From NCBI GenBank assembly GCA_018712425.1, contig DVHA01000161.1:1-25131 (forward strand): a stretch of 25,131 bases of DNA, read 5' to 3'. The notes beneath the pieces were generated by a model, which did no database searches, was not told the DNA's origin, and was given only the letters and a program-made list of their open reading frames with translations. Positions 10,261 through 23,459 of the stretch are shown in pieces; position 1 is the first letter of the stretch; each line of letters opens with the position of its first letter. The position numbers and the translations under genes were made by a program. The stretch is from Candidatus Faecivivens stercoravium (GTDB lineage: Bacteria > Bacillota > Clostridia > Oscillospirales > Ruminococcaceae).

Positions 10261-12564
10261 TTATTTCTTCTTTCCGGTGCCGAACAGCCGCTTGACCTTC
10301 CCGGCGGCCTCGCCGATCCGGACGAGCGGGTCCTTGCCGGGTTCGCGGGGCTGGGGTGCGGGCCGCACCGGCGTCCGCCAGGGCGCGTCGGTGTTCCCGC
10401 TGTAAACGGGGGCCTGGGGCTGCTGGAAGGGGTTCCCGTCCGGCTGGGGGGACGGGATGGACGGCTGGACCGTCAGGGTGGGGACGGGGATCTCGCCGGT
10501 ACCGCCGGACAGGCCGGGGGTATAGCCGATATCGGGTTCCGCCGCCGGTTCGAAAACCGGCTCAGCCCCCGGGGCGGCCTGCAAAAGCGGCATCCGCACC
10601 GTCGCCTTAAAGAGGTCGCCGTCAATCGAGAGTTCGAGCCGCCCGTGCTGCAATTCCATCAGGCTCTTGGCAATCGAAAGCCCAAGCCCCGACCCTTCGG
10701 TCGAACGGGAGGCGTCCCCGCGGACAAACCGCTCCATCAGCTCGTCGGGGGAGACTTTCAGCCGGTCGCGGGAGATGTTCCGGAGGGTCAGCATTGCCTC
10801 CCCCTCCCTCTTTTCCAGGTCGACATAGACCCGGGTGCCGGAAAGGGCGTACTTTGTGATGTTGCCGAGAAGGTTATCCAGCACCCGCCAGATTCTTCTC
10901 GAATCGGCCAGCACCATGACCGGCTCTTCCGGCGCGGAGGTGACCAGTTCAAGCCCCTTCTGCTCCATCCGCTCCTGGTATTCCCCGGCGGCCTGTTCCA
11001 GCAGCACCCCCAGTTCGCAGGGCTGGAGGTCGACCGAGAGGTTGCCGGTGGAGGCCTTGGACGCTTCGACCAGGTCCTCAATCAGCTTGCGGAGGCGGGA
11101 GGACTGCCGCTGGAGCGCCTCGATATAGCTCTTCATCCGCTCATTTTCCGGCTTTTCCTTGCTTAAGAGGTCGACGTAGTTGACGATCGAGGTGAGGGGG
11201 GTCTTGATGTCGTGGGAGACGTTGGTGATAAGCTCGGTCTTCATCCGCTCCGAGCGCATCTTCTGGTCGAGGGCGTGGCTCAAGCCGTCCCGGATGGCAT
11301 TCAGGTCCTCGGCGTGGCCCTTAAAGGGGCCCAGCATCCCGGCGGTGTCCACCTGGTAGTCAAGCTCGCCCTTCGCCATCCGCCCGGCGGCGTCCTGAAG
11401 GCGGCGCATCTGGGCGACGACGACGATTGCCGCCAACACCACCGCGATGTTGTAGACGAGCCAAAAGACAAAGGATAAAAAGGAACCGTTTCCATACACA
11501 AGGATCGTGAAAAAGAACTCGCCGAACAGGATGCCCACCGTAATGGCAAGCCCCTGCCAGGTCAGCGGCAGCGAACCGACCATCCGGCCGGCGCTGCGGA
11601 AGGTACCGGAGAAAAACCGGCTGATAAACCGCCCGCACCAGGCGCAGAACTTCCAGATGAGGGAATTCCGCCACCATTTGCGGGTCTTAAAGCGCACTGC
11701 GCAGCTGCAAAGGATCATTTCACTCACCAGTACCAATCCGAGGATCGAGAGCAGTTCAAGGAACATACAGAAAAGGACGTCTCCGGTCGCGTACCCGCTG
11801 ACCAGGCCCGCCATCTCCAACGCCATCCCCAGGAGAAGCAGCCAGACAAACCCGAAGAGCAGGATATAGAGGTCGAAGGGGATCCGCTCCTGCCAGCCGG
11901 GGAAGACCTCCTCGCTGCCCGGCTTCCGGCCGCAGCCGGCAAACAGCGCCGCGTGGACAAAAACGGTCAGGATGACCCCGGCAATCGAGATGAAAATCAG
12001 CGGGAACCGGAGCCGGTAGAGGAAATAATAGAGTTCCCCGGCAAAATAGAGGACGTCGCGGGCCTCCATCGGCGAAGCGACCCCCAGTTCCATCACGGCC
12101 GAATGGGAGGTGTACATCCGCATGTCAAACCCCGACCAGTCGGCTTCCCAGGGGAAGTCGTAGATGGTGGACGCGACCCGCACGCCGGTTTCGTTGTCGG
12201 TGAGGTAGTAGTAATACCGCGGTTCCATCCCCGCCGGGGTTTCTTCCTCGGGGTCGTAATTGGTATAGACGTTCCCTTCCTCGTCGGTGATCCGGACCCG
12301 GAGGTTGGTGTACTGGGGGTTATAGGTCTGCCGGAGTTTCATCTCCCCGCCGGCGATATAGATATCCCCCACCGTATAGTCGGAGGCGCTGACGATCATC
12401 TGGGCCATCTCCGACTCGCCGAAGTTGGGGTTCCCGGCCACATAAAAGGACTGGGTCGAGCAGAAGGCAAAGCCGATGATGCCGAGGATGGTGATGATCG
12501 TCAAGACCACCGACAGGAAAAAGCAGGACGCCTTGACAAAGGGCCTGCGGATAAACGCCGTCAT
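10261..12564 (-). CDS. Membrane-bound sensor histidine kinase with a Pro-rich C-terminal extension
   Basis: Several TM segments, H-box ELITNVSHDIKTPLTSI, N-box LDNLLGNITKY and G-boxes RGDASRSTEGSGLGLSIAK. Confidence 0.93.
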   Translation of the reverse strand: MTAFIRRPFVKASCFFLSVVLTIITILGIIGFAFCSTQSFYVAGNPNFGESEMAQMIVSASDYTVGDIYIAGGEMKLRQTYNPQYTNLRVRITDEEGNVYTNYDPEEETPAGMEPRYYYYLTDNETGVRVASTIYDFPWEADWSGFDMRMYTSHSAVMELGVASPMEARDVLYFAGELYYFLYRLRFPLIFISIAGVILTVFVHAALFAGCGRKPGSEEVFPGWQERIPFDLYILLFGFVWLLLLGMALEMAGLVSGYATGDVLFCMFLELLSILGLVLVSEMILCSCAVRFKTRKWWRNSLIWKFCAWCGRFISRFFSGTFRSAGRMVGSLPLTWQGLAITVGILFGEFFFTILVYGNGSFLSFVFWLVYNIAVVLAAIVVVAQMRRLQDAAGRMAKGELDYQVDTAGMLGPFKGHAEDLNAIRDGLSHALDQKMRSERMKTELITNVSHDIKTPLTSIVNYVDLLSKEKPENERMKSYIEALQRQSSRLRKLIEDLVEASKASTGNLSVDLQPCELGVLLEQAAGEYQERMEQKGLELVTSAPEEPVMVLADSRRIWRVLDNLLGNITKYALSGTRVYVDLEKREGEAMLTLRNISRDRLKVSPDELMERFVRGDASRSTEGSGLGLSIAKSLMELQHGRLELSIDGDLFKATVRMPLLQAAPGAEPVFEPAAEPDIGYTPGLSGGTGEIPVPTLTVQPSIPSPQPDGNPFQQPQAPVYSGNTDAPWRTPVRPAPQPREPGKDPLVRIGEAAGKVKRLFGTGKKK

Positions 12565-12578
12565 AAAAAAGACCCTCC

Positions 12579-13274
12579 TTACGAGTCGACGAGCTTATAC
12601 CCCTGGGCCCAGACGACCTTGAGGTAGCGGGGCTCGGCAGGGTTGATTTCCAGTTTCTCCCGCAGGTGCCGGATGTGGACGGCGACGGTCGAGTCGGCCC
12701 CGTAGGGTTCGTCCTTCCAGACCTGGCGGTAGATCTCCTTGGGAGAGAGGACCTCCCCCGGGCGTTCCATAAACAGCTTCATAATCTTGTACTCGGTGGG
12801 GGTCAGGGCGACCGGTTCCCCGTCCTGGGTCAGCGTCTTGGTCCTATCGTCCAGCTCAAAGGGGCCGACCCGCATTGTCCCCGCCGCTTCGGCCGTCCGG
12901 CTGCCGCCCAGCTTCATATACCGCCGCAGCTGGGAGCGCACTCTGGCCAGCAGCTCGACCGGGTTGAAGGGTTTCGTGACATAGTCGTCGGCCCCGATGT
13001 TGAGGCCCATGATCTTGTCGCTGTCCTCGCTCTTGGCGGTGAGGAGGATGACCGGGACGTTATACTCCTCCCGCAGGACCGACAGGGCGGAAATCCCGTC
13101 CATCTCCGGCATCATCACGTCCATCAGCACCAGATGGACCGTCTCCCGGCGGAGGATTTCCAGCGCCTCCTTGCCGGTATAGGCTTCAAAGGTATTGTAC
13201 TGTTCGGCTGCCAGGTAGATTTTTAAAGCGGCGACAATGTCTTTTTCGTCGTCAACGATGAGGATATTGTACAT
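12579..13274 (-). CDS. OmpR/PhoB-family response regulator
   Basis: ILIVDDE, LMDVMMPEMDG, LLTAK, GADDYVTKPF and the winged helix TVAVHIRHLREKLE. Confidence 0.95.
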   Translation of the reverse strand: MYNILIVDDEKDIVAALKIYLAAEQYNTFEAYTGKEALEILRRETVHLVLMDVMMPEMDGISALSVLREEYNVPVILLTAKSEDSDKIMGLNIGADDYVTKPFNPVELLARVRSQLRRYMKLGGSRTAEAAGTMRVGPFELDDRTKTLTQDGEPVALTPTEYKIMKLFMERPGEVLSPKEIYRQVWKDEPYGADSTVAVHIRHLREKLEINPAEPRYLKVVWAQGYKLVDS

Positions 13275-13369
13275 CGGTGGACACTCCTTTTGTCTATCTT
13301 CATTTTAGCCCTTTTCCCTTTAAAAATAAAGGCGGGAAAGTTTTAAGATTTTCTTATGCCGGGCAGGAT

Positions 13370-13807
13370 TTACCTCAAATCCTTCTCCATCGGGAAATGG
13401 GGGATGCCGATTTCGGTAAAGCCTTCGCCGGTGATCCGGTACCCCAGCTTCAGGTAAAACCCGGCGGCAGACTGGCGGGCGTGGAGGGTAATTTTGCAGC
13501 CGCCGTTCTCTTTTAACAGGGCTTCGGAGGCTTCCACTAGCTTCCGGCCGTATCCCCTCCCCTGCATCTCCGGGGTGACGCAGACCTGGCGCATCTGGTA
13601 GACCCCGTCCCCCAGCGGGTGGAGGAGCAGGAGGGCAATCAGATGCCCGTCTAAAAAGCCGCCAAGGTGGATGTCCTCCCGGTCGCGGGAGAGGTCCTCG
13701 TCTTTCAGGTCCAGGCCCAGCGGATGGCGGAGTACCCGGTTGCGGAGGTCATATTCTTCTTTATAAGCGGGGTCTTCGGGACGGAAGGTTTTAAACTGGA
13801 TATCCAT
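13370..13807 (-). CDS. GNAT family N-acetyltransferase (YjcF/ElaA-like)
   Basis: LRNRVL, MRQVCVTPEMQGRGYGRKL (acetyl-CoA motif A), LHARQSAAGFYLKLGY and FTEIGIPHFPM. Confidence 0.9.
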   Translation of the reverse strand: MDIQFKTFRPEDPAYKEEYDLRNRVLRHPLGLDLKDEDLSRDREDIHLGGFLDGHLIALLLLHPLGDGVYQMRQVCVTPEMQGRGYGRKLVEASEALLKENGGCKITLHARQSAAGFYLKLGYRITGEGFTEIGIPHFPMEKDLR

Positions 13808-13846
13808 GGTGCAGTCTCCTTTGTGATTGATGTTCTTCTCTTAGTT

Positions 13847-13875
13847 ATTGTACCTTAAATTTAGCCGGCTGTAAA
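13847..13875 (-). promoter_or_regulatory. SigA promoter of the GNAT gene
   Basis: Minus strand reads TTTACA-17-TACAAT. Confidence 0.55.
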
Positions 13876-13921
13876 GCGGAGGCGGCTTCTACGGAAATCA
13901 GTTTTTTATGTAAAAACAAAT

Positions 13922-13967
13922 AAACCGGCCCCTGCCGCCTGAAAACGAGACGGCAAAGGCCGGTTTT
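13922..13967 (-). terminator. Terminator after the ABC permease
   Basis: aaaccggcc...tgccg...cggca...ggccggtttt inverted repeat just downstream of the stop codon. Confidence 0.6.
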
Positions 13968-13977
13968 ACATTGGACA

Positions 13978-16515
13978 TCATTCGGCTGTCCGCAGCCGTT
14001 CCTGGAGCGTCCCGCGGGTCACCCGGTTTAAACAGGCAAGCGGCACCGCCACCGACAGAATCAGGATCACCGGCAGGAGGACCCACAGCGGCAGCAGGGT
14101 AAACTCATACACCGAGATCCAGGAGAGCTCGGCGATGACCCCCGGCATGACAAAAACTGCCGCCGCCACCGAAACCGGCACCAGCACCGCCGCCATGATG
14201 AGGGCATAAAGCACCCCTTCCAGCAGGATCAGCTGCCGCAGCTGGGCGATGGTCATCCCGAGGCTCTGGAAGACCGCGAAGGCCCGCTTCCGGCTGACCG
14301 AGCGGGTGATCAGGAGGTTTACAAACCCCAAAAGCGCAATCCCCGCCAGCACCAGCCCGATAATCAGCGGCACCAGGACGGTGTTGAGGCTGGCGTCGCG
14401 GAAGTTCCGCTGGTAGTCGCTTCGGAGGGTGACGCCGATGCCGCGGTTTAAGCCGCTTTCAAAGTCGGAGAGGAAGGCTTCAAAGCTCCCCTGCCCCGCC
14501 GGGTCGATGTTGATGGCCATCTGCCGGACCGGGGAATCGGGGTAGAGGACGTCGAAAGCAGGGAGCGGCAGGATGTAGTAGAAGGTAAAGGAAGCTTCCC
14601 GGCTGTTCTGGCCGCTTAAATAGGCGTTATCGTGCATCAGCGAGCCCATAACGGTGAAGGTTTGCCCCTCAAGCTCGACCGTCTCCCCGGCCGCCGGGCA
14701 GGAGACCCCTTCGTTGTAGGCGCCGCCCGCAAGGATGTAATTGCCGGATAAAAAGGCCGCTTCGTCAAAAGAGCCGCTGGTGAAGGGGCAGTTGTCGAGG
14801 ATATACTGGAGGTAATCCCCCTCCAGCCCAATGACGACGGCGGTGTATTCCCCCGTCCCGGTCAGTCGGTCCAGCCCCGCTATCCAGTCGGGGAAGGCGG
14901 CCTGGGACTCTTTGAGGGTCATCGAATCGTCGTAGGGCTGGTTGTAGTAGTCCACTACCCGTTTCCGGAGCGTCTCCGGGGCGGTCATCTCCACCTCCCG
15001 GCTCTTGAGGGCTGAAAGGCTTGTCACCTCCGGCCGGGCGCGGAAGGTTTCGGCCGTTTCGTCGGTGATCGACCGGCTGGCCTCGTTGTACCGCTGGGAA
15101 GAGGTCTGGGCCGAGCCATCGGTGACCGAATAGTCCCAGGGGGAGAGGGCCGCGAGGTAGATATCCTCCTGGAAGCTCGCGTACTCCATCCAGACGGTAT
15201 TTAACAGCAGCGCCGCCAGCAGCATCACCCCGACCGACAGGCAGAGCTGCCCCTTCCCCCGGCTGATGGTCCGGCGGGCCAGCCGCGGGAGGGTCATCAG
15301 CCCGCCGGCGCTGCCGCGTCCGGCCTTGGCGGGGGCGGATGCCCGCATCGTCTCGGCAGGGGTCTGCCGGGTGAGGGGGATGAGCGGCAGCAGGTAGGAG
15401 AGGAGGACGGTTAAGAGGGTGCAGAACGCCGCCGCGAGGAAGGGCGGCCAGTCGAGGAAGTAGAGGCCGGGGTTTATTTCGGTGCCGGTCACCACCCGGC
15501 CGGTGACAAAGAGGTTGATGAGAAACCCGGCGAGGAACCCGGGCAGGAGCCCCATCGCCGTCACCATACACCCCTTTTCCAGCAGCATCCGCCGTATCTG
15601 CCGCGGGGTCATCCCCTGGGCCTTGAGGACCGCGAAGAAAGCGCGGTCAGAGTCGGATGAGACGTGAATAATCCCGTAGATCATCAGAAACCCGCAGACC
15701 ACCACGAGGATCGCCGGGGCATAGAACCGTGCCGCCTGGGAAACGGCCTGTTCCCGGCGGGCTTCGTTGTAGGCAAGGTTGGTGGTGTAGGGGATGCTGT
15801 CGGGGAGGCCCTGGTCCCGGAGGATTTCCGCCGCCTGGGCTTCCAGCTCCCGGGGCTGGTGGAGGGTGAGGCCCAGGGTGACGTTTTTCGCCGTCTCCCC
15901 GTCGTAGCCGGGGAAGAGGGCTGAGGCCGTGTCCGCCGTAATCCAGGCGCAGGCCTCGGTAAAGTTGGCGGCGCTCATCCACCAGCCGCAGAGGGTGAAG
16001 GTATCGGTGTGGGTCTCCCCGGCGGCGTCGGTCCACTGGAGGGGGAAGGCCGTCCCCAGCTCATAGGGCAGCCCCAGGGAGCCCATCGTATACTCATCCA
16101 GCGCGATTTCATAGGGCTCTTCCGGCAGCCGCCCCTCAGCCGGCAGCGAGAGGACCGTCTCGGCGTAGTCCCGGTCGGTGACCGCCAGCTGGACCGTCCG
16201 CTGGCCGAGCACCGGGTCGGAGAGGGTGCCGATGGTGCTGAGGGTGACGGCGGATTTGACGTTGACATGCTGGCTGAGGAGGGCGGCCTGGGATTCGGTC
16301 AGGCCGGTGTAGAGGATGTGGCTGGTGGAGCCGTAGAGGTACTGGTAGCTGAGCAGGAACCCCGACTGCACGGCGTTCCCGAGCAGGAAGACGAAGGTGT
16401 ACAGGGCGGTGACCAGCGCCGCCGCGAGGACCAGGAGGGCGTTTTTGGCCCGGTGGAACCGGAAGTCCCGGCGGACAAGGGCCCAGGAGACCTTAAGGTT
16501 GTTGTTATACAGCAT
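13978..16515 (-). CDS. ABC transporter permease, FtsX/MacB-like, with two FtsX repeats
   Basis: N-terminal TM, large extracellular loop, FAVLKAQGMTPRQIRRMLLEKG and FAVFQSLGMTIAQLRQLILLEG FtsX signatures, terminal TM bundles. Confidence 0.88.
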   Translation of the reverse strand: MLYNNNLKVSWALVRRDFRFHRAKNALLVLAAALVTALYTFVFLLGNAVQSGFLLSYQYLYGSTSHILYTGLTESQAALLSQHVNVKSAVTLSTIGTLSDPVLGQRTVQLAVTDRDYAETVLSLPAEGRLPEEPYEIALDEYTMGSLGLPYELGTAFPLQWTDAAGETHTDTFTLCGWWMSAANFTEACAWITADTASALFPGYDGETAKNVTLGLTLHQPRELEAQAAEILRDQGLPDSIPYTTNLAYNEARREQAVSQAARFYAPAILVVVCGFLMIYGIIHVSSDSDRAFFAVLKAQGMTPRQIRRMLLEKGCMVTAMGLLPGFLAGFLINLFVTGRVVTGTEINPGLYFLDWPPFLAAAFCTLLTVLLSYLLPLIPLTRQTPAETMRASAPAKAGRGSAGGLMTLPRLARRTISRGKGQLCLSVGVMLLAALLLNTVWMEYASFQEDIYLAALSPWDYSVTDGSAQTSSQRYNEASRSITDETAETFRARPEVTSLSALKSREVEMTAPETLRKRVVDYYNQPYDDSMTLKESQAAFPDWIAGLDRLTGTGEYTAVVIGLEGDYLQYILDNCPFTSGSFDEAAFLSGNYILAGGAYNEGVSCPAAGETVELEGQTFTVMGSLMHDNAYLSGQNSREASFTFYYILPLPAFDVLYPDSPVRQMAINIDPAGQGSFEAFLSDFESGLNRGIGVTLRSDYQRNFRDASLNTVLVPLIIGLVLAGIALLGFVNLLITRSVSRKRAFAVFQSLGMTIAQLRQLILLEGVLYALIMAAVLVPVSVAAAVFVMPGVIAELSWISVYEFTLLPLWVLLPVILILSVAVPLACLNRVTRGTLQERLRTAE

Positions 16516-16527
16516 CGGCGGGCCTCC

Positions 16528-17190
16528 TCAGACGATCTTCCCGTCTTCAATCCGGACGACCCGCCCGGCCATCTGGGCGATTTCCAGGTTGTGGGTGATC
16601 ATGATGAGGGTCTGCCGGTAGGTTTCGGCCGACAGCTTTAAAAGCCCCAGGACATTCTGGCCGGTTTTGGAGTCGAGGCTGCCGGTCGGCTCGTCGGCGA
16701 GGAGGATCGAGGGCTTCGCGATCAGCGCCCGGGCGATCGCCGCCCGCTGCTGGCCGCCGCCCGAGAGCTCGTGGGGGTAGCGGTCCAGCCGGTCTTTCAG
16801 CCGCAGGAGGGAGGTGACCTCGTCAAAAAAGGCGGTATCGGGGGCAGAACCCGCAAGGCTCAAGGGGAAGAGGATGTTTTCCCGGACGGTCAGCGTCGGG
16901 ACGAGGTTGAAGTTCTGGTAGACAAAGCCCACCTTGCTCCGGCGGAAGACCGCCAGCTCCCGTTCCTTCAGCCCCGAGAGCCGCACCCCGTCGACGGTGA
17001 CCTCCCCTTCGTCGGGGACGTCCATCCCGCCGATCATGTTGAGCAGGGTCGTCTTGCCGGAGCCGGAGGCGCCGATGATGGCGGTGAAGCTGCCTTTTTC
17101 GACGCTCAGGTCGATGCCCCGCAGGGCTTCCACTTTGTTCGCCCCTTTGCCAAAGGTCTTTTTCAGGTTTTGCACGGTTACAATGTCCAT
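16528..17190 (-). CDS. ABC transporter ATP-binding subunit (LolD/MacB-type)
   Basis: Walker A GASGSGKT, GFVYQNFNL, LSGGGQQR signature, Walker B LLADEPTGSLD and the ITH switch. ATG 17190 follows an AAAGGA RBS. Confidence 0.95.
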   Translation of the reverse strand: MDIVTVQNLKKTFGKGANKVEALRGIDLSVEKGSFTAIIGASGSGKTTLLNMIGGMDVPDEGEVTVDGVRLSGLKERELAVFRRSKVGFVYQNFNLVPTLTVRENILFPLSLAGSAPDTAFFDEVTSLLRLKDRLDRYPHELSGGGQQRAAIARALIAKPSILLADEPTGSLDSKTGQNVLGLLKLSAETYRQTLIMITHNLEIAQMAGRVVRIEDGKIV

Positions 17191-17283
17191 GGGAGGAGTC
17201 CTTTCTTTTTGTCTTTCATCCGAACCATACATATTCGGTTCGTTCGTTATATATCCCGCCGTTCTTTGGCTGACAGCGACAAC

Positions 17284-17313
17284 AAATCCCCTCTCCATCC
17301 GGAAAGGGGATTT
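17284..17313 (-). terminator. Hairpin after the PNPOx-like gene
   Basis: aaatcccct ... aggggattt inverted repeat with a T-rich tail on the minus strand. Confidence 0.6.
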
Positions 17314-17331
17314 CATTCTGCGTAATGCCTC

Positions 17332-17840: not shown

Positions 17841-18893
17841 TCAGGCATTTTGACTGTAAGGCACCGCCCAGTCCTTCAGCAAAGCCGTCAGGGACGGACA
17901 GGAATCAAAGTACAGCTTAATCCCGTATTCTCCATCCTTCCCGATGGGAAACGCCAGCGTTATCCCGTCCTCATATATAGCCAGGCAATCCGGCAGGTTT
18001 TCCGGGGACAGTTCCCGCTCGGCTGCGTCCCGTCTATCCGCAAACGCCGTGTCCTGCTCCTGAATAATATCCAGCAATCGCCCGACCGCCTCTTCTACCG
18101 GGCAGCTGAACAGCTCAAGCAGGCTAATTGGTTCCCCTGTCTCCCGGTCGAAAGCGGCACAACGGGAAAAGCCATCGCCGTACGACGCATCCCCCGGCAC
18201 CTGCACCGAAGTATCGCAATAGACCACACGAGAAGCAACAGCGCTGATTTCACTCCGCTGGCTGACTGTCCGGGGGTGGAAAGAATACGTCTGTTCCCGC
18301 TGCCGGCCAGTGTATATGGAATAAGCTTTTTCCAATTCTTCCGCCAGGTCATACAACAGCCCCTGCTTATCACAGTAATCCAAAATTCTTTGTTGGACCA
18401 CTGGGTTAAGGTCGAAAAAAAGGCCCGCCACACCGTCCGGCAGGACTGGGTATTCCACCAGCAGCAGTTGCTGCCCGTCCGGCAGGAAATACTGTTCTCC
18501 CTCAGAATTTTTCCAGACCGACAGTTTCGTCCCATCGGATAAAACCGCCTTCCGGCCGGTGCAGTAGGACAACACCTGCACCGAATCAGCCTGATATCCG
18601 TAAACGGTTTCTCTATTCAAATGGATCCACTGTTCGCTGTACGGGGTATACTGAACCCGAAGAGTAATGGTTGTATCCAGCTGCAAAATTTCCCTTGCTT
18701 CCGGCTCATCGATCATCGTCCAGACCAGCGTCCCGTCCTCCAGCGTAAATCCAACCCTGCGCCCCTTTTCCGTCATCAGCAAAAGGGTACCCCCCTCCAC
18801 CTGAACCAGCGTCCCTTCCACTGCCTTCTGATCGCCGCACCAAATAAGCAGGCAGACGACCATTAGCATCACCGCGGCAAACGCTTTTTTCAT
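17841..18893 (-). CDS. Exported protein of unknown function with a possible DUF3298-like C-terminal part
   Basis: Signal-peptide-like N-terminus. C-terminal AFDRETGEPISLLELF and LAIYEDGITLAF resemble DUF3298/PdaC-N/RsiV-type motifs. Confidence 0.6.
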   Translation of the reverse strand: MKKAFAAVMLMVVCLLIWCGDQKAVEGTLVQVEGGTLLLMTEKGRRVGFTLEDGTLVWTMIDEPEAREILQLDTTITLRVQYTPYSEQWIHLNRETVYGYQADSVQVLSYCTGRKAVLSDGTKLSVWKNSEGEQYFLPDGQQLLLVEYPVLPDGVAGLFFDLNPVVQQRILDYCDKQGLLYDLAEELEKAYSIYTGRQREQTYSFHPRTVSQRSEISAVASRVVYCDTSVQVPGDASYGDGFSRCAAFDRETGEPISLLELFSCPVEEAVGRLLDIIQEQDTAFADRRDAAERELSPENLPDCLAIYEDGITLAFPIGKDGEYGIKLYFDSCPSLTALLKDWAVPYSQNA

Positions 18894-18896
18894 CGC

Positions 18897-21536
18897 CTAC
18901 TCCTTCCCAAGCCCCGTCACGTCCGAGAGCCGCGTCCGCCGGAGCCGCCCCTCCTGGGCGTTCTGCCCGATGATCGACCGGATCCTCTCGTTTACAAGCT
19001 GCACCTCTTCATAGAACATCGACGCCGACACCCGTTCGCACCCGTGCCCCAGGATAATCATCTGTTCCAGCCCATCGGAGGTGGCGACCCGGATCCGCTT
19101 TTTCTTCCCGAGGGCGTAGCTCACCTTTTCGATATACATGTCCGCCGTCTCCGCTTCTTCGGTGTAGACGACGTAGACCCCGTTCTGCCGCTCGACCGCC
19201 CCTTTGCCCCCGTGGACCTTATAGGCGTCGAAGACGGCGATCACCCCGCACTGCTTATAGCCCTGGTAGTTGGAAAGGATGTCGATCAGCGCGCTTCTCG
19301 CCGCGTCGAGATTCTCCCTCGCCTCCGCCCGCAGCTCGTCCCAGGCGAAGATGATGTTGTACCCGTCCACCAGCAGCACCTCCGCCGTCTCCTCAAACGC
19401 CTCCAACAGCTTCCCTTTGTCTATCTGCCGGACGGTGTTCTGCGGGAGGAAATCCCGCCGCTTCACCTCCCCGTAGGTGCGGGCAAAAATCCGTTCCAGT
19501 TCCCTGCCTTCCTCCCGGGTGCCGGCGTAGACCATCCGCCCGGTGGGCGGCGTGTACTTCGGGGGCGGTTCCGGCTCCTTGTCCCGTTCCAGCGGGTAGG
19601 GCGGCAGGTGCATATGCCCCTCCACCTCCCGCCAGCCGACCGTCACCCCGGCCCCGTGGGAGCAGAAGACCGAATCGGGGGTATTTTCGAGGTCGGCCTC
19701 GGGGCTGTAGCCGAAGGAAGCGATCACCTCTTCGGCGCCATGGCATTCCTCATACCCCCCGTACCGCAAACTCAGCCGCCCCTTCCCTCTTGAATAGGCG
19801 GCGACATCGGCGGCGTACCCCTGCATCGTCGCGACCGGGCAGCGCCCCTTAAAGGAAGCGGTCTGCCCGTCCATCTCCGGCGGCTCGAGGGTGCCCGCCA
19901 TCAGCGGGATGTCGTGCATTACCCGCCCGGCGTTCTCAGCCGGCACCGTCAACGTGAAGTCGTAGACCGGCTCCAATAAGACGCTCTCCGCCTTCATCAG
20001 CCCCTGCCGGACCGCCCGGTAGGTCGCCTGCCGGAAATCGCCCCCCTCGGTGTGCTTGAGGTGGGCCCGCCCAGCGACAAGGGTGATGGTCATATCGGTG
20101 ATCGGGCTGCCGGTCAGCACCCCTTTGTGCTCCTTTTCCAGCAGGTGGGTTAGGATCAGCCGCTGCCAGTTGCGGTCGAGGTCGTCTTCGCTGACCGCCG
20201 TTTTGAAGGTAAGGCCGCTCCCCCGTTCCGCCGGTTCCAGCAGCAGGTGCACCTCGGCGTAATGCCGCAGCGGCTCGAAGTGCCCGACCCCTTCGACCGG
20301 GGCCTTGATCGTCTCCTTGTAGACGACGCCCCCTTCCGAAAAGCCGATCGAGAGCCCGAACCGGTCTTTGGCCAGCCGTTCCAGCACCTCCAGCTGCACC
20401 GCCCCCATCGGCTGCAATGTAATCTCCTGCAAAGCGCCGTTCCAGCTGATGTGCAGCTGCGGGTCCTCTTCCGCCAGCTCCGAGAGCTTCTGCATTGCTG
20501 AAAAGGGCGACTCCCCCTCCGGCAGGATCACCTTGTACCGCAGCACCGGCTGCAGTTCCGGCGCCTTCCCCTCCGCCTCGAACCCGAGCCCTTCCCCGGC
20601 GCGGGTGTGGGTGAGGCCGGCCACCGCGACGACGCTCCCGGCGGGGGCGCTGTCGAGAAGGGTATATTTTGCCCCCGAATAGAGCCGCAGCTGGTCGGCC
20701 TTCTCCTTCCAGGGACCGTCCGGCCCCTCCCCTTCGACCGCCGCCTTGACCGGCAGCGACCCGCCGGTGATCTTCATGTGGGTGAGCCGGACGCCCCCTT
20801 CCCGGCTCACCTTAAAGACCCGCGCGCCGAAAGCATCGGGGTATTCCGGCCGCGGCATCAGCCGGGAGAGCGCCTCCAGAAATTCCGCGACGCCAATGAG
20901 TTTTAAGGCCGAGCCGAAAAAACAGGGGAACAGTTCCCGCTTCCCGACCGCCTCCCGCAGCATCGAGTCGGGCACCGTCCCGTTTTCGAGGTAATAGTCC
21001 AGCATCTTTTCGTCACAGACCGCCGCCTCCTCCATCCAGCCGTCCCCATCGGCCGACAGATCGGCAAACCCATCCCCCAGCTTACCTTTCAGTTCCCCCA
21101 TTACAAAATCACGCCCGTCATCCGGCCGGGCGTTTTCCAAAAGGTCCAGCTTGTTGATAAACAGAAAAGTGGGGACCCGGTACCGCCCCAGCAGCTCCCA
21201 CAGCGTCCGGGTATGCCCCTGTACCCCGTCCGGCCCGCCCACCACCAGGATGGCCGCGTCCAGCACCGGCAGCACCCGCTCCGCCTCGGCCGCGAAGTCG
21301 GCGTGGCCGGGGGTGTCGAGGAGGGTCACTTCGGTATCCCCGAGGGGGAAGACCGCCTGTTTCGAGAAGATGGTGATCCCCCGCTCCCGCTCCAGCGCGC
21401 CGGTGTCGAGGAAGGCGTCCTGATGGTCGACCCGCCCCAGCTTCCGCAGCTTGCCGCAGGTATATAAAATTCCCTCGGCCAGCGTCGTTTTCCCGGCGTC
21501 GACATGGGCAAGGATCCCGATTACACAACGATTCAT
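18897..21536 (-). CDS. EF-G/Tet-like translational GTPase fused to a C-terminal YacP/Rae1-type NYN domain
   Basis: AHVDAGKT, ERGITI, DTPGH and NKLD G-motifs, EF-G-like domains II-V (EEDPQL, VVYKETI, LLEPVY), then LLVDGYNIIFAW, IAVFDA, TADMYIEK and VATSDGLEQ. Start is 21536 or 21545. Confidence 0.88.
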   Translation of the reverse strand: MNRCVIGILAHVDAGKTTLAEGILYTCGKLRKLGRVDHQDAFLDTGALERERGITIFSKQAVFPLGDTEVTLLDTPGHADFAAEAERVLPVLDAAILVVGGPDGVQGHTRTLWELLGRYRVPTFLFINKLDLLENARPDDGRDFVMGELKGKLGDGFADLSADGDGWMEEAAVCDEKMLDYYLENGTVPDSMLREAVGKRELFPCFFGSALKLIGVAEFLEALSRLMPRPEYPDAFGARVFKVSREGGVRLTHMKITGGSLPVKAAVEGEGPDGPWKEKADQLRLYSGAKYTLLDSAPAGSVVAVAGLTHTRAGEGLGFEAEGKAPELQPVLRYKVILPEGESPFSAMQKLSELAEEDPQLHISWNGALQEITLQPMGAVQLEVLERLAKDRFGLSIGFSEGGVVYKETIKAPVEGVGHFEPLRHYAEVHLLLEPAERGSGLTFKTAVSEDDLDRNWQRLILTHLLEKEHKGVLTGSPITDMTITLVAGRAHLKHTEGGDFRQATYRAVRQGLMKAESVLLEPVYDFTLTVPAENAGRVMHDIPLMAGTLEPPEMDGQTASFKGRCPVATMQGYAADVAAYSRGKGRLSLRYGGYEECHGAEEVIASFGYSPEADLENTPDSVFCSHGAGVTVGWREVEGHMHLPPYPLERDKEPEPPPKYTPPTGRMVYAGTREEGRELERIFARTYGEVKRRDFLPQNTVRQIDKGKLLEAFEETAEVLLVDGYNIIFAWDELRAEARENLDAARSALIDILSNYQGYKQCGVIAVFDAYKVHGGKGAVERQNGVYVVYTEEAETADMYIEKVSYALGKKKRIRVATSDGLEQMIILGHGCERVSASMFYEEVQLVNERIRSIIGQNAQEGRLRRTRLSDVTGLGKE

Positions 21537-21690
21537 ATCATACACACACCACTTTAGATAAGATCTGATTTCCCTGCCCGCGCTCTCTTCCCGGCGGACA
21601 GATTTCCCATAATATTATACCACAGACCCCCAAGCGGCGTCTATACGTCTATAATTTTATAAGTATGGAATGTTTATTTCGCTGCCCTTA

Positions 21691-22142: not shown

Positions 22143-23459
22143 TCAGGCGTGAACCCGGACGGCTGTCCGCCCGACGTCCTGCCGCTTCCAGAGGACGGCG
22201 CAGAGGACGAGCACCGCCACCTCGGTGATCGGGAAGGTGAGCCAGACAAAGGTCAGGCCGAAAAAGTGCAGCGCCCAGGCCACCGGCACCAGCAGGAAGA
22301 CCTGCCGGACGAGGGTTAAAAGCATACTCTGCGCGCCCTTGCCGACCCCCTGGAAGTAGACGGTCAGCATCATCCCGATGCCCGCCGGGACAAAGCTCGT
22401 CCCGATAATCCGCAGGGCGGTGACGCCGGCCGCCAGCACCCCTTCGCTCTGGGAGAAGATCCGCAGGAGGGCTTCCGGCGCCGCGAGGAAGACGGCTGTC
22501 CCGGCGCCCGCCACCGCCGCCGAGATGCCGACGGCCCACTTGACCGTCTCCCGCACCCGGCTTTCCAGCCCCGCCCCGTGGTTAAAGGAGATAACCGGCA
22601 GGATCACCTGCTGGAGGCCCATCAGCGGGATGAAGAAAAAGGCCTGGAGCTTGTAGTAGATGCCCAGCACCGTCACCGCGTCCTCGGTGAAGCCGGCGAG
22701 GATGAGGTTCAGGCCGATGATGTAGAGGGTGTAAAGCGACTGCATGAAGATGGAGGGGAGGCCGCAGCGGTAGATGCGCCCGATCGCCCGGAGGGAGGCT
22801 TTCCCGCTCCGCTTATGCCCCCGCAGCACCGCCGTAAGGGTGACCGCCATCGCCGCCCACTGCCCGGCCACCGTCGCGATCGCCGCCCCGGCGACCCCCA
22901 TCTCGGGGCAGCCGAAGAGGCCGAAGATCAGGACCGGGTCGAGGACGATGTTGAGAAGCGCCCCCAAAACCTGCGCCGCCATCGGCAGGAGGGTGTTCCC
23001 CCGGGCCTGCAAAATCTTCGAGCAGTTGGACTCGATGAAGCAGCCGGCCGAGAAGAGGATGACGATGCCCCCGTAGGATACCCCCATCTCCCGCACCAGC
23101 GGGTTGTCCGACGACACCGCGAAGTAGGGCCGCAGCACCAGCATCCCGGCGGCAGCAAAGAGGATGTAGTTGAGGACGCCGGTCAAGAGGCCGTTGCGGA
23201 TAAAAACCCCGGCCTCTTTCCCCTCCCCGTCCAGCCGGGAGACGAGGATCCCGATCCCGGCCCCCGTCCCGGTCGCCACCGAGGTGATCAGCAGCTGGAG
23301 CGGGTAGATGACCGACAGCGCCGTCAGCCCCTCCGCCGCGTACCGGCCGATAAAAAAGCTGTCGACGATGTTGTAGATTGACTGGATTAAAAGCGCCAGC
23401 ATCACCGGCGGCGAGAGCTTTAAAAGCAGTTTCCCCACCGGCATCTTTTCCATTTCCAT
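22143..23459 (-). CDS. MATE family efflux transporter
   Basis: PVMLALLIQSIYNIVDSFFIG, ALSVIYP, LNIVLDPVLIFG...MGVAGAAIAT, about 12 TM segments, two MatE halves. Confidence 0.93.
   Translation of the reverse strand: MEMEKMPVGKLLLKLSPPVMLALLIQSIYNIVDSFFIGRYAAEGLTALSVIYPLQLLITSVATGTGAGIGILVSRLDGEGKEAGVFIRNGLLTGVLNYILFAAAGMLVLRPYFAVSSDNPLVREMGVSYGGIVILFSAGCFIESNCSKILQARGNTLLPMAAQVLGALLNIVLDPVLIFGLFGCPEMGVAGAAIATVAGQWAAMAVTLTAVLRGHKRSGKASLRAIGRIYRCGLPSIFMQSLYTLYIIGLNLILAGFTEDAVTVLGIYYKLQAFFFIPLMGLQQVILPVISFNHGAGLESRVRETVKWAVGISAAVAGAGTAVFLAAPEALLRIFSQSEGVLAAGVTALRIIGTSFVPAGIGMMLTVYFQGVGKGAQSMLLTLVRQVFLLVPVAWALHFFGLTFVWLTFPITEVAVLVLCAVLWKRQDVGRTAVRVHA

Follow-up and report, generated by a model that had tools for sequence, protein, structure and literature searches.

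The 25,131-nt stretch of DNA analysed here (hereafter the window) comprises positions 1–25,131 of contig DVHA01000161.1 from the Candidatus Faecivivens stercoravium assembly GCA_018712425.1, a member of the Ruminococcaceae within the Clostridia. On its reverse strand lies one intact gene (18897..21536), confirmed to encode in a single chain of 879 aa an EF-G/Tet-like GTPase, a tether, and a YacP/Rae1 NYN domain. An earlier reading made from the sequence alone (the sequence-only reading) had recognised in one chain a complete translational GTPase joined by a linker to an NYN domain, which the open reading frame (ORF) and the Pfam matches bear out. The uninterrupted ORF spans 18897..21545 and would give 882 aa if counted from an in-frame GTG at 21545 (+3 aa); the ATG at 21536 was taken as the start because homologues begin at that position, and the stop codon occupies 18897–18899.

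From the N-terminus, and all on the reverse strand, the protein consists of a G domain (aa 5–228, 20853..21524; Pfam GTP_EFTU, E = 4e-45), a domain II beta-barrel (~aa 237–337, 20526..20828), domain III (~aa 344–400, 20337..20507), domain IV (aa 403–517, 19986..20330; Pfam EFG_IV, E = 1.2e-17), domain V (aa 519–601, 19734..19982; Pfam EFG_C, E = 1.9e-15), a 44-aa C-terminal extension of the GTPase module (aa 602–645, 19602..19733), a flexible tether (aa 646–718, 19383..19601), and the NYN domain (aa 719–872, 18921..19382; Pfam NYN_YacP at aa 721–872, E = 1.5e-46). Domain II was assigned from AlphaFold2 strands at aa 237–337 (predicted local distance difference test [pLDDT] >90) and from Foldseek matches to EF-G. 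Domain III was assigned from the same model and a Pfam EFG_III match (aa 349–397) of 21.9 bits, which is under the gathering score of 27. The extension, a helix plus a beta-hairpin, was delimited by the model and by conservation, and the tether by predicted disorder and alignment.

In the AlphaFold2 model, for which 120 family members were used, the mean pLDDT is 84.6 and the predicted template modelling (pTM) score 0.66; a confident five-domain EF-G-shaped body and a confident NYN domain (aa 719–871) are separated by a low-confidence linker. Compared by Foldseek to the Protein Data Bank (PDB), the body matched EF-G/EF-2 structures (E = 1e-52, TMt 0.51–0.68), placing the fold in the EF-G type without discriminating Tet proteins from EF-G. 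A query consisting of the tether plus the NYN domain matched at least 7,999 protein clusters (90% identity) among proteins of 483–1,539 aa, and among the 120 matches listed for this query all but three fragments carried the full domain set, with homologues named Oscillibacter, Oscillospiraceae, and Monoglobus. The passage from domain V into the NYN domain is also covered by an independent contig of chicken-gut DNA (window 19244–20028). Because of the thousands of matching clusters and this junction-spanning contig, the fusion is not an artefact of assembly.

Nuclease domain and tether

The NYN domain scored 158.8 bits with NYN_YacP (PF05991), for which the cut-off is 24.6, and 163.5 bits when the genome was searched, settling by hidden Markov model (HMM) the identity that the sequence-only reading had proposed for the C-terminal domain; the extent given there (about 18950–19383) was refined to 18921–19382. 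It aligns to residues 2–145 of Bacillus subtilis YacP (PDB 5MQ8/5MQ9, E = 4e-23) and ends in a long C-terminal helix (aa 838–871). The acidic motifs LLVDGYN, VFDA, ETAD, and ATSD are all present, again as first read, and their aspartates (D724 in DGYN, D770 in VFDA, D799 in ETAD, and D821 in TSD) occur in 120 of 120 fused proteins. This set of 120, whose members are 41–84% identical to the window protein, is the alignment behind all conservation figures given here. D724 and D799 correspond to D7 and D81 of Rae1, with D7 and the TSD aspartate counted on the printed alignment and D81 assigned through the conserved ETAD motif; D7N D81N is the published catalytic mutant of Rae1 (PMC10351889). The GYN that follows the first aspartate is the distinguishing motif of the NYN_YacP family (PMC5499597). 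The domain is the C-terminus of an 879-aa protein and thus falls outside the stand-alone form, a free protein of ~170 aa.

Glu, Arg, Ala, Pro, and Lys abound in the tether, which is mostly disordered, with pLDDT <50 at aa 652–674 and 690–705. Its length, measured from H643 to L721, ranges from 64 to 144 aa (median, 81) in the 120 family members. Between the two disordered segments lies a conserved helix (aa 674–688, window 19473–19517, reverse strand), identified in the AlphaFold2 model and carrying E679 and I683 in the motif LERIFxRTYG; its conservation suggests that it may be a functional coupling element.

Placement of the GTPase module

All of G1–G5 are present in the GTPase module (AHVDAGKT, RGIT, DTPGH with the catalytic His78, NKLD, and GSAL), as are the His after DxxG and the EF-G domains II–V that mark the EF2 family of the translational GTPase superfamily. 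D13, G15, K16, D74, K129, and D131 are invariant among the fused proteins, and H78 is found in 119 of the 120. Since the GTPase motifs, His78, and the four NYN aspartates are invariant or nearly so at 41–84% identity, both modules look catalytically competent and under selection.

Model scores separate the module from the tetracycline ribosomal protection proteins (RPPs). Its best NCBIfam match is tet_protect (NF012153), at 360.1 bits and below the equivalog cut-off of 775, and the specific RPP models fall below their own cut-offs (Tet(M), 187.6 vs 1420; M/W/O/S, 234.4 vs 1100; Otr(A), 267.1 vs 900). EF-G models score 243–287 against cut-offs of 583–659 (TIGR00484, 242.9 vs 659.4). Among PDB entries the best match is Tet(O) at 220 bits, with EF-G close at 212 bits. 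Natural Tet(W), TetB(P), Tet(M), Tet(O), and Tet(S) are 28–30% identical to the window protein. Elsewhere the same genome has a canonical EF-G of 694 aa together with another gene that is EF-G-like.

The domain IV loops were compared by alignment with natural Tet(M/O/S/W), TetB(P), and the genome's own EF-G. Loop I (GHFEPLRHYAEVH, aa 418–430) differs from both EVPPNPFWAS of Tet proteins and SGGKGQYGH of EF-G. Loop III (AHLKHTEGGDFR, aa 491–502, window 20031–20066, reverse strand) has the family form AHxKHTEGGDFR and differs from YYSPVSTPADFR of Tet proteins and SYHEVDS of EF-G. In the window protein it reads AHLKHTEGG and is not of the H-x-V-D-S type of EF-G. The Tet motif YSPVST aligns to KHTEGG, so that a His stands at the position of the Tet proline, and the alignment upholds the first impression that this loop resembles neither the YSPVST type nor the HxVDS type. 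Pro509 of Tet loop III sits in the tetracycline site on C1054 (PMC8161019). Loops I and III are nearly invariant among the fused proteins and are common to their unfused orthologues (below). The C-terminal extension is likewise kept in fused and unfused orthologues and is missing from Tet RPPs and EF-G in the alignment; its motif comprises Y610, D615, S622, F624, C625, G628, G630, V633, W635, and H643, with modelled strands at aa 622–626 and 629–633 and pLDDT means of 83–92 for ten-residue blocks across aa 601–650.

A quick maximum-likelihood tree, rooted on EF-G and with Shimodaira-Hasegawa-like approximate likelihood ratio test (SH-aLRT) values as its only support, recovered an RPP clade (Tet M/O/S/W and TetB(P); 98) as sister to the clade of the fusion family (95 and 100). 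On this tree and these scores the GTPase is placed as a separate family, sister to the tetracycline ribosomal protection proteins and not within them. The sequence-only reading had likened the module to Tet proteins and called for such a phylogeny; a place in the Tet-like radiation is retained, membership in the RPP clade is not, and the sister family to which the module belongs is known also without a nuclease.

Distribution of fused and stand-alone YacP

In a sample of 250 genomes from the window's class, the fused form (frames of ~845–930 aa) occurs in 92, a stand-alone YacP (165–230 aa) in 73, neither in 85, and both in none. In descriptive terms, ~27 genomes with both forms would be expected under independence, compared to 0 observed. 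Two apparent double hits were resolved, one as a 21-bit sub-threshold match and the other as a single gene split over two contig ends. Four families hold both forms, always in different genomes. In a phylum-wide sample of 201 genomes, 113 had a match and each of these had exactly one, with the fused form found in 8 genomes outside the window's class. Within the window's family, YacP occurs in 26 of 60 sampled genera and is always fused (25 frames of 842–1030 aa and one contig-end fragment), and the window's own genome (76% complete) holds this copy only.

The fused gene is therefore the commoner YacP form in Clostridia, where it substitutes for stand-alone Rae1. The architecture does occur in other Clostridia, as the sequence-only reading had stated, and not as an occasional variant (92 fused vs 73 stand-alone). 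The pattern of exclusion is what would be expected of two forms that do the same job.

Unfused orthologues and fusion history

Orthologues of the GTPase module without an NYN domain (627–698 aa) were found in 11 of the 250 genomes. They are 44–50% identical to the window protein over aa 1–638, have the same loops and C-terminal extension, and also score under the Tet cut-off (378–439 bits). Four of these genomes encode in addition a stand-alone YacP elsewhere in the genome, 1.37 Mb away in one case (G209). An obligatory two-gene partnership of GTPase and YacP was considered and is not supported, as 4 sampled genomes have both, 7 have the GTPase alone, and most genomes with a stand-alone YacP are without the GTPase.

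In the GTPase tree the fused modules form a single clade (99), and the unfused Clostridial copies branch below it. When the NYN domains are placed on an unrooted tree, a branch with support of 97/99 has every fused domain on the same side; one Clostridial stand-alone YacP (G299) groups among the fused domains, and the other Clostridial ones lie apart from them. Because the fused GTPase modules form one clade and the fused NYN domains share one side of a branch, the simplest history would be that an existing GTPase fused once to a Clostridial YacP and that the fused gene then passed on vertically, with losses.

Three individual cases are of note. Genome G299 belongs to a family in which the gene is otherwise fused and has a separate 698-aa GTPase, basal in its tree, and a 172-aa YacP on different contigs (L043 and L073); this pair could have arisen when the fusion split or could be left over from the state before it. 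In G169 (C2:126183–128758), a GTPase frame (588 aa) and an NYN frame (351 aa) are adjacent and separate, being either frameshifted or naturally split. The third is an unfused orthologue (644 aa, 46% identical) on the megaplasmid NZ_CP027645.1 of Ligilactobacillus salivarius (L032, 5530–7920), which lies divergent to a paralogue of rpsN (S14) and beside a 'putative metal homeostasis protein', with IS200/IS605 flanks. It is nested within the fused GTPase clade, which suggests that this copy may have lost its nuclease after transfer. Its annotation as a TetM/W/O/S family resistance protein is probably a mis-annotation, and the neighbouring rpsN hints at a link to alternative ribosomal proteins.

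Genomic neighbourhood and expression

Neighbours of the fusion gene in the window include a MATE pump upstream, a lipoprotein-like ORF, a PNPOx-like gene, and an ABC transporter of BceAB-like type accompanied by a two-component system. The lipoprotein-like ORF (350 aa, 17841–18893, reverse strand) starts 3 nt past the stop codon of the fusion gene and is probably co-transcribed with it. Its signal peptide is lipoprotein-like, with a hydrophobic stretch leading to a Cys. The ORF had no match in Pfam or PADLOC and was not seen beside the fusion gene in other genera. A phage-defence role was dropped, as no PADLOC model matches the fusion protein or this downstream neighbour. Further along, 10261–17316 (reverse strand) encodes a histidine kinase, a response regulator, a GNAT acetyltransferase, an 845-aa FtsX/MacB-type permease, and an ABC ATPase, a set that resembles a BceAB-type module for sensing and efflux of peptide antibiotics; the MATE pump occupies 22143–23459 (reverse strand). 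Taking the pump and the BceAB-like set as support for a role in drug resistance was rejected, because the neighbours are not conserved. No mobile-element context of the fused gene was found in the loci examined, and no conserved neighbour of the unfused GTPase was found across 7 loci; no operon partner emerges.

A stand-alone Clostridial example lies in a cysS-mrnC-thyX-rlmB-yacP-sigH cluster, and rlmB in the window's genome is not followed by yacP. Directly 3' of that rlmB is a 913-aa frame (L109, 2416–5157; G000:C16) with no Pfam match, which could be either a genuine gene of unknown kind or an open frame that arose by chance in GC-rich DNA.

A promoter-like site on the reverse strand (21614..21643; TAGACG, an 18-nt spacer, and TATAAT, with TG before the −10 element) lies ~70 nt upstream of the start codon, in a consensus scan that returned 2 sites compared to 1.2 expected in shuffled sequence. 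An Rfam scan of the whole window returned no RNA family, hence no leader or riboswitch is evident upstream. Several studies have chicken-gut and faecal metagenomes in which the stretch is present. Metatranscriptome contigs from two studies also contain pieces of the gene, though carry-over of DNA is possible there, giving a weak hint that the fusion gene is expressed.

Proposed function

Fusions of TetM-like GTPases to NYN_YacP were catalogued by Atkinson 2015 (PMC4342817) and Matelska 2017 (PMC5499597), at that time from ten species or 'some Clostridia', with tetracycline resistance or rRNA processing discussed as roles; the latter work listed 'TetM-NYN_YacP fusion proteins' with an unclear role (PMC5499597). 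The window gene has the same architecture, belongs to the same class, and shows no structural difference from the catalogued fusions, so the sequence-only reading, which had presented the architecture without a prior description, was anticipated in print in 2015 and 2017. New here are the quantitative split from Tet RPPs, the unfused orthologues together with an apparent single origin of the fusion, the constraint on tether length, and the finding that the fused form is the commoner one and never occurs with a stand-alone YacP.

Both catalogues predate the evidence for Rae1 action on stalled or collided ribosomes. According to data from 2025–26, Rae1 cuts mRNA behind stalled or collided ribosomes, and the cut feeds rescue by transfer-messenger RNA (tmRNA; PMC13622287). 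A structure of ribosome-bound Rae1 is lacking, as binding is transient, and how Rae1 recognises the ribosome remains open (PMC13622287). Rae1 was originally modelled in the A site, a picture that the newer work has revised and that is now outdated.

With a probability that we put at roughly 0.55, the fusion protein is an mRNA endonuclease equivalent to Rae1 that serves stalled or collided ribosomes and is delivered by a built-in GTPase of the factor-binding site. A single-chain nuclease that docks on the ribosome is favoured because the fused and stand-alone forms never co-occur and because the catalytic residues of both modules are invariant. In the proposed mechanism, the N-terminal 645 aa would act as an EF-G-shaped, GTP-hydrolysing factor that docks in the factor-binding site of a 70S ribosome unable to proceed, with domain IV reaching toward the decoding centre. 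Because domain IV would then fill the A site, the NYN domain would have to act outside of it, at the end of a tether of at least 64 aa, and the disordered 64–144-aa tether fits a nuclease acting away from its docking site. From there the NYN domain may reach mRNA at the entry side of the docked ribosome, which in a disome would be the stretch leaving the stalled ribosome ahead. It would cut the mRNA most plausibly between the stalled ribosome and the collided one behind, the place where stand-alone Rae1 cuts. The truncated mRNA would pass to tmRNA rescue, as with stand-alone Rae1 in B. subtilis (a tmRNA is present in the window's genome), and GTP hydrolysis would time binding and release. For the fusion protein itself, we infer ribosome binding, the mRNA substrate, the position of the cut, and the role of GTP.

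Several observations weigh against this proposal. Stand-alone Rae1 works in B. subtilis without any such GTPase, and the unfused GTPase occurs in 7 genomes without any YacP; each module can therefore act independently. About one third of Clostridia genomes are without YacP, among them one from the window's own genus that is 98% complete, and since many genomes do without it the function of YacP is dispensable. The count of 0 co-occurrences against ~27 expected is descriptive, as the genomes are related and are not independent samples, and mutual exclusivity shows redundancy or displacement, not an identical mechanism. In addition, no neighbour is conserved beside the fused gene across 10 genera, and a full-text search of the literature found no functional study of the fusion family.

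The GTPase module could be a sensor beyond serving as an anchor, an extension of the proposal that is possible, if rather doubtful. Its loops and C-terminal extension would serve to probe a decoding site that is vacant or blocked, and GTP hydrolysis would license or time a single cut by the NYN domain. The nearly invariant domain IV loops are rich in His, Lys, and Arg, and hydrolysis would take place at the sarcin-ricin loop. A sensor of this kind would make the protein a single-chain bacterial counterpart of no-go decay delivered by a translational GTPase and, by Rosetta-stone logic, the unfused GTPase might be a partner or parallel of Rae1 where the genes stay apart.

Alternative explanations

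An unlikely alternative is that the nuclease cuts a bound tRNA or else rRNA, for instance close to the decoding centre or to the 3' end of the 16S, with a role in ribosome maturation, inactivation, or stress turnover. The C-terminus of the GTPase module is expected near 16S rRNA, by analogy with structures of Tet(M) on the ribosome. Earlier neighbourhood work tied YacP to the rRNA/tRNA processing genes mrnC and rlmB (PMC5499597), an association seen here in the stand-alone example, but the fused gene is not beside rRNA-processing genes. All shown substrates of stand-alone Rae1 are mRNAs, cut in a translation- and frame-dependent manner, and a length-conserved tether of at least 64 aa argues for a distant target.

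Another explanation, which is given little credence, is that the two modules do separate jobs and that fusion serves to co-regulate or co-localise them, the GTPase having its own function on the ribosome (such as rescue, splitting, or probing of an empty A site) and the NYN domain being an ordinary Rae1 that is locally concentrated. Unfused GTPases do occur with a distant YacP, without YacP, and on the L. salivarius megaplasmid, and the model has no confident packing of the modules (pTM 0.66 with a disordered linker). Set against this, many families have retained the fusion and left both catalytic centres invariant, a conserved helix lies within the tether, and a chance fusion should frequently come apart, whereas only two cases on the trees (G299 and L. 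salivarius) point that way.

A new kind of tetracycline resistance, in which a Tet(M)/Tet(O)-type RPP has gained a nuclease, was raised in both earlier catalogues (PMC4342817, PMC5499597) and is favoured by tet_protect and Tet(O) as best matches, by public annotation of some members as 'TetM/TetW/TetO/TetS family', and by the MATE efflux gene upstream, but it is highly improbable given the score of 360 bits against 775 with EF-G nearly equal, the 28–30% identity, the replacement of YSPVST by KHTEGG together with a different loop I, the position in a sister clade, the single-copy occurrence among varied chromosomal neighbours in many genera with no mobile-element context in the loci examined, and the exclusion of stand-alone Rae1, which it leaves unexplained.

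Implications

Recent work identifies Rae1 as the nuclease that makes stalled or collided ribosomes accessible to tmRNA rescue in Gram-positive bacteria (PMC13622287), and in a large share of gut Clostridia the sole Rae1 homologue is covalently tied to a GTPase of the factor-binding site. If the fusion does the job of Rae1, it would show where on the ribosome the nuclease launches from and would offer a handle to trap the complex for cryo-electron microscopy (with a non-hydrolysable GTP analogue or a His78 mutant), giving the family value as an experimental route to how Rae1 recognises ribosomes. A translational GTPase family that is sister to the tetracycline protection proteins would then have a role in ribosome quality control. 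Labels of 'TetM/TetW/TetO/TetS family tetracycline resistance protein' on some members are probably wrong and inflate counts of resistance genes in gut metagenomes.

Comparison with known systems

The closest known system on the nuclease side is Rae1/YacP of B. subtilis (PF05991; 5MQ8/5MQ9), with which the fusion shares the DGYN motif, the four acidic residues, the long C-terminal helix, and a slot of one per genome. Rae1 is a free protein of ~170 aa, whereas here the NYN domain forms the C-terminal end of a GTPase of 879 aa, whose gene lies in an unrelated and non-conserved neighbourhood. On the GTPase side, the Tet(M)/Tet(O) RPPs are the nearest characterised relatives in the tree and share a five-domain EF-G-like GTPase of ~640 aa that can be aligned end to end; the fusion family differs from them in loops I and III, the His at the position of Pro509, and the 44-aa extension, and is chromosomal and single-copy. 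The proposed logic, in which a nuclease at a stalled or collided ribosome cuts the mRNA upstream before rescue, would be like that of SmrB in Escherichia coli and Cue2/NONU-1 in eukaryotes. These have an SMR fold in place of NYN, are recruited via the disome interface or ubiquitin, and in no case are fused to a translational GTPase. Hbs1-Dom34 is an A-site probe delivered by a translational GTPase, and by analogy the fusion may rely on a similar mode of delivery.

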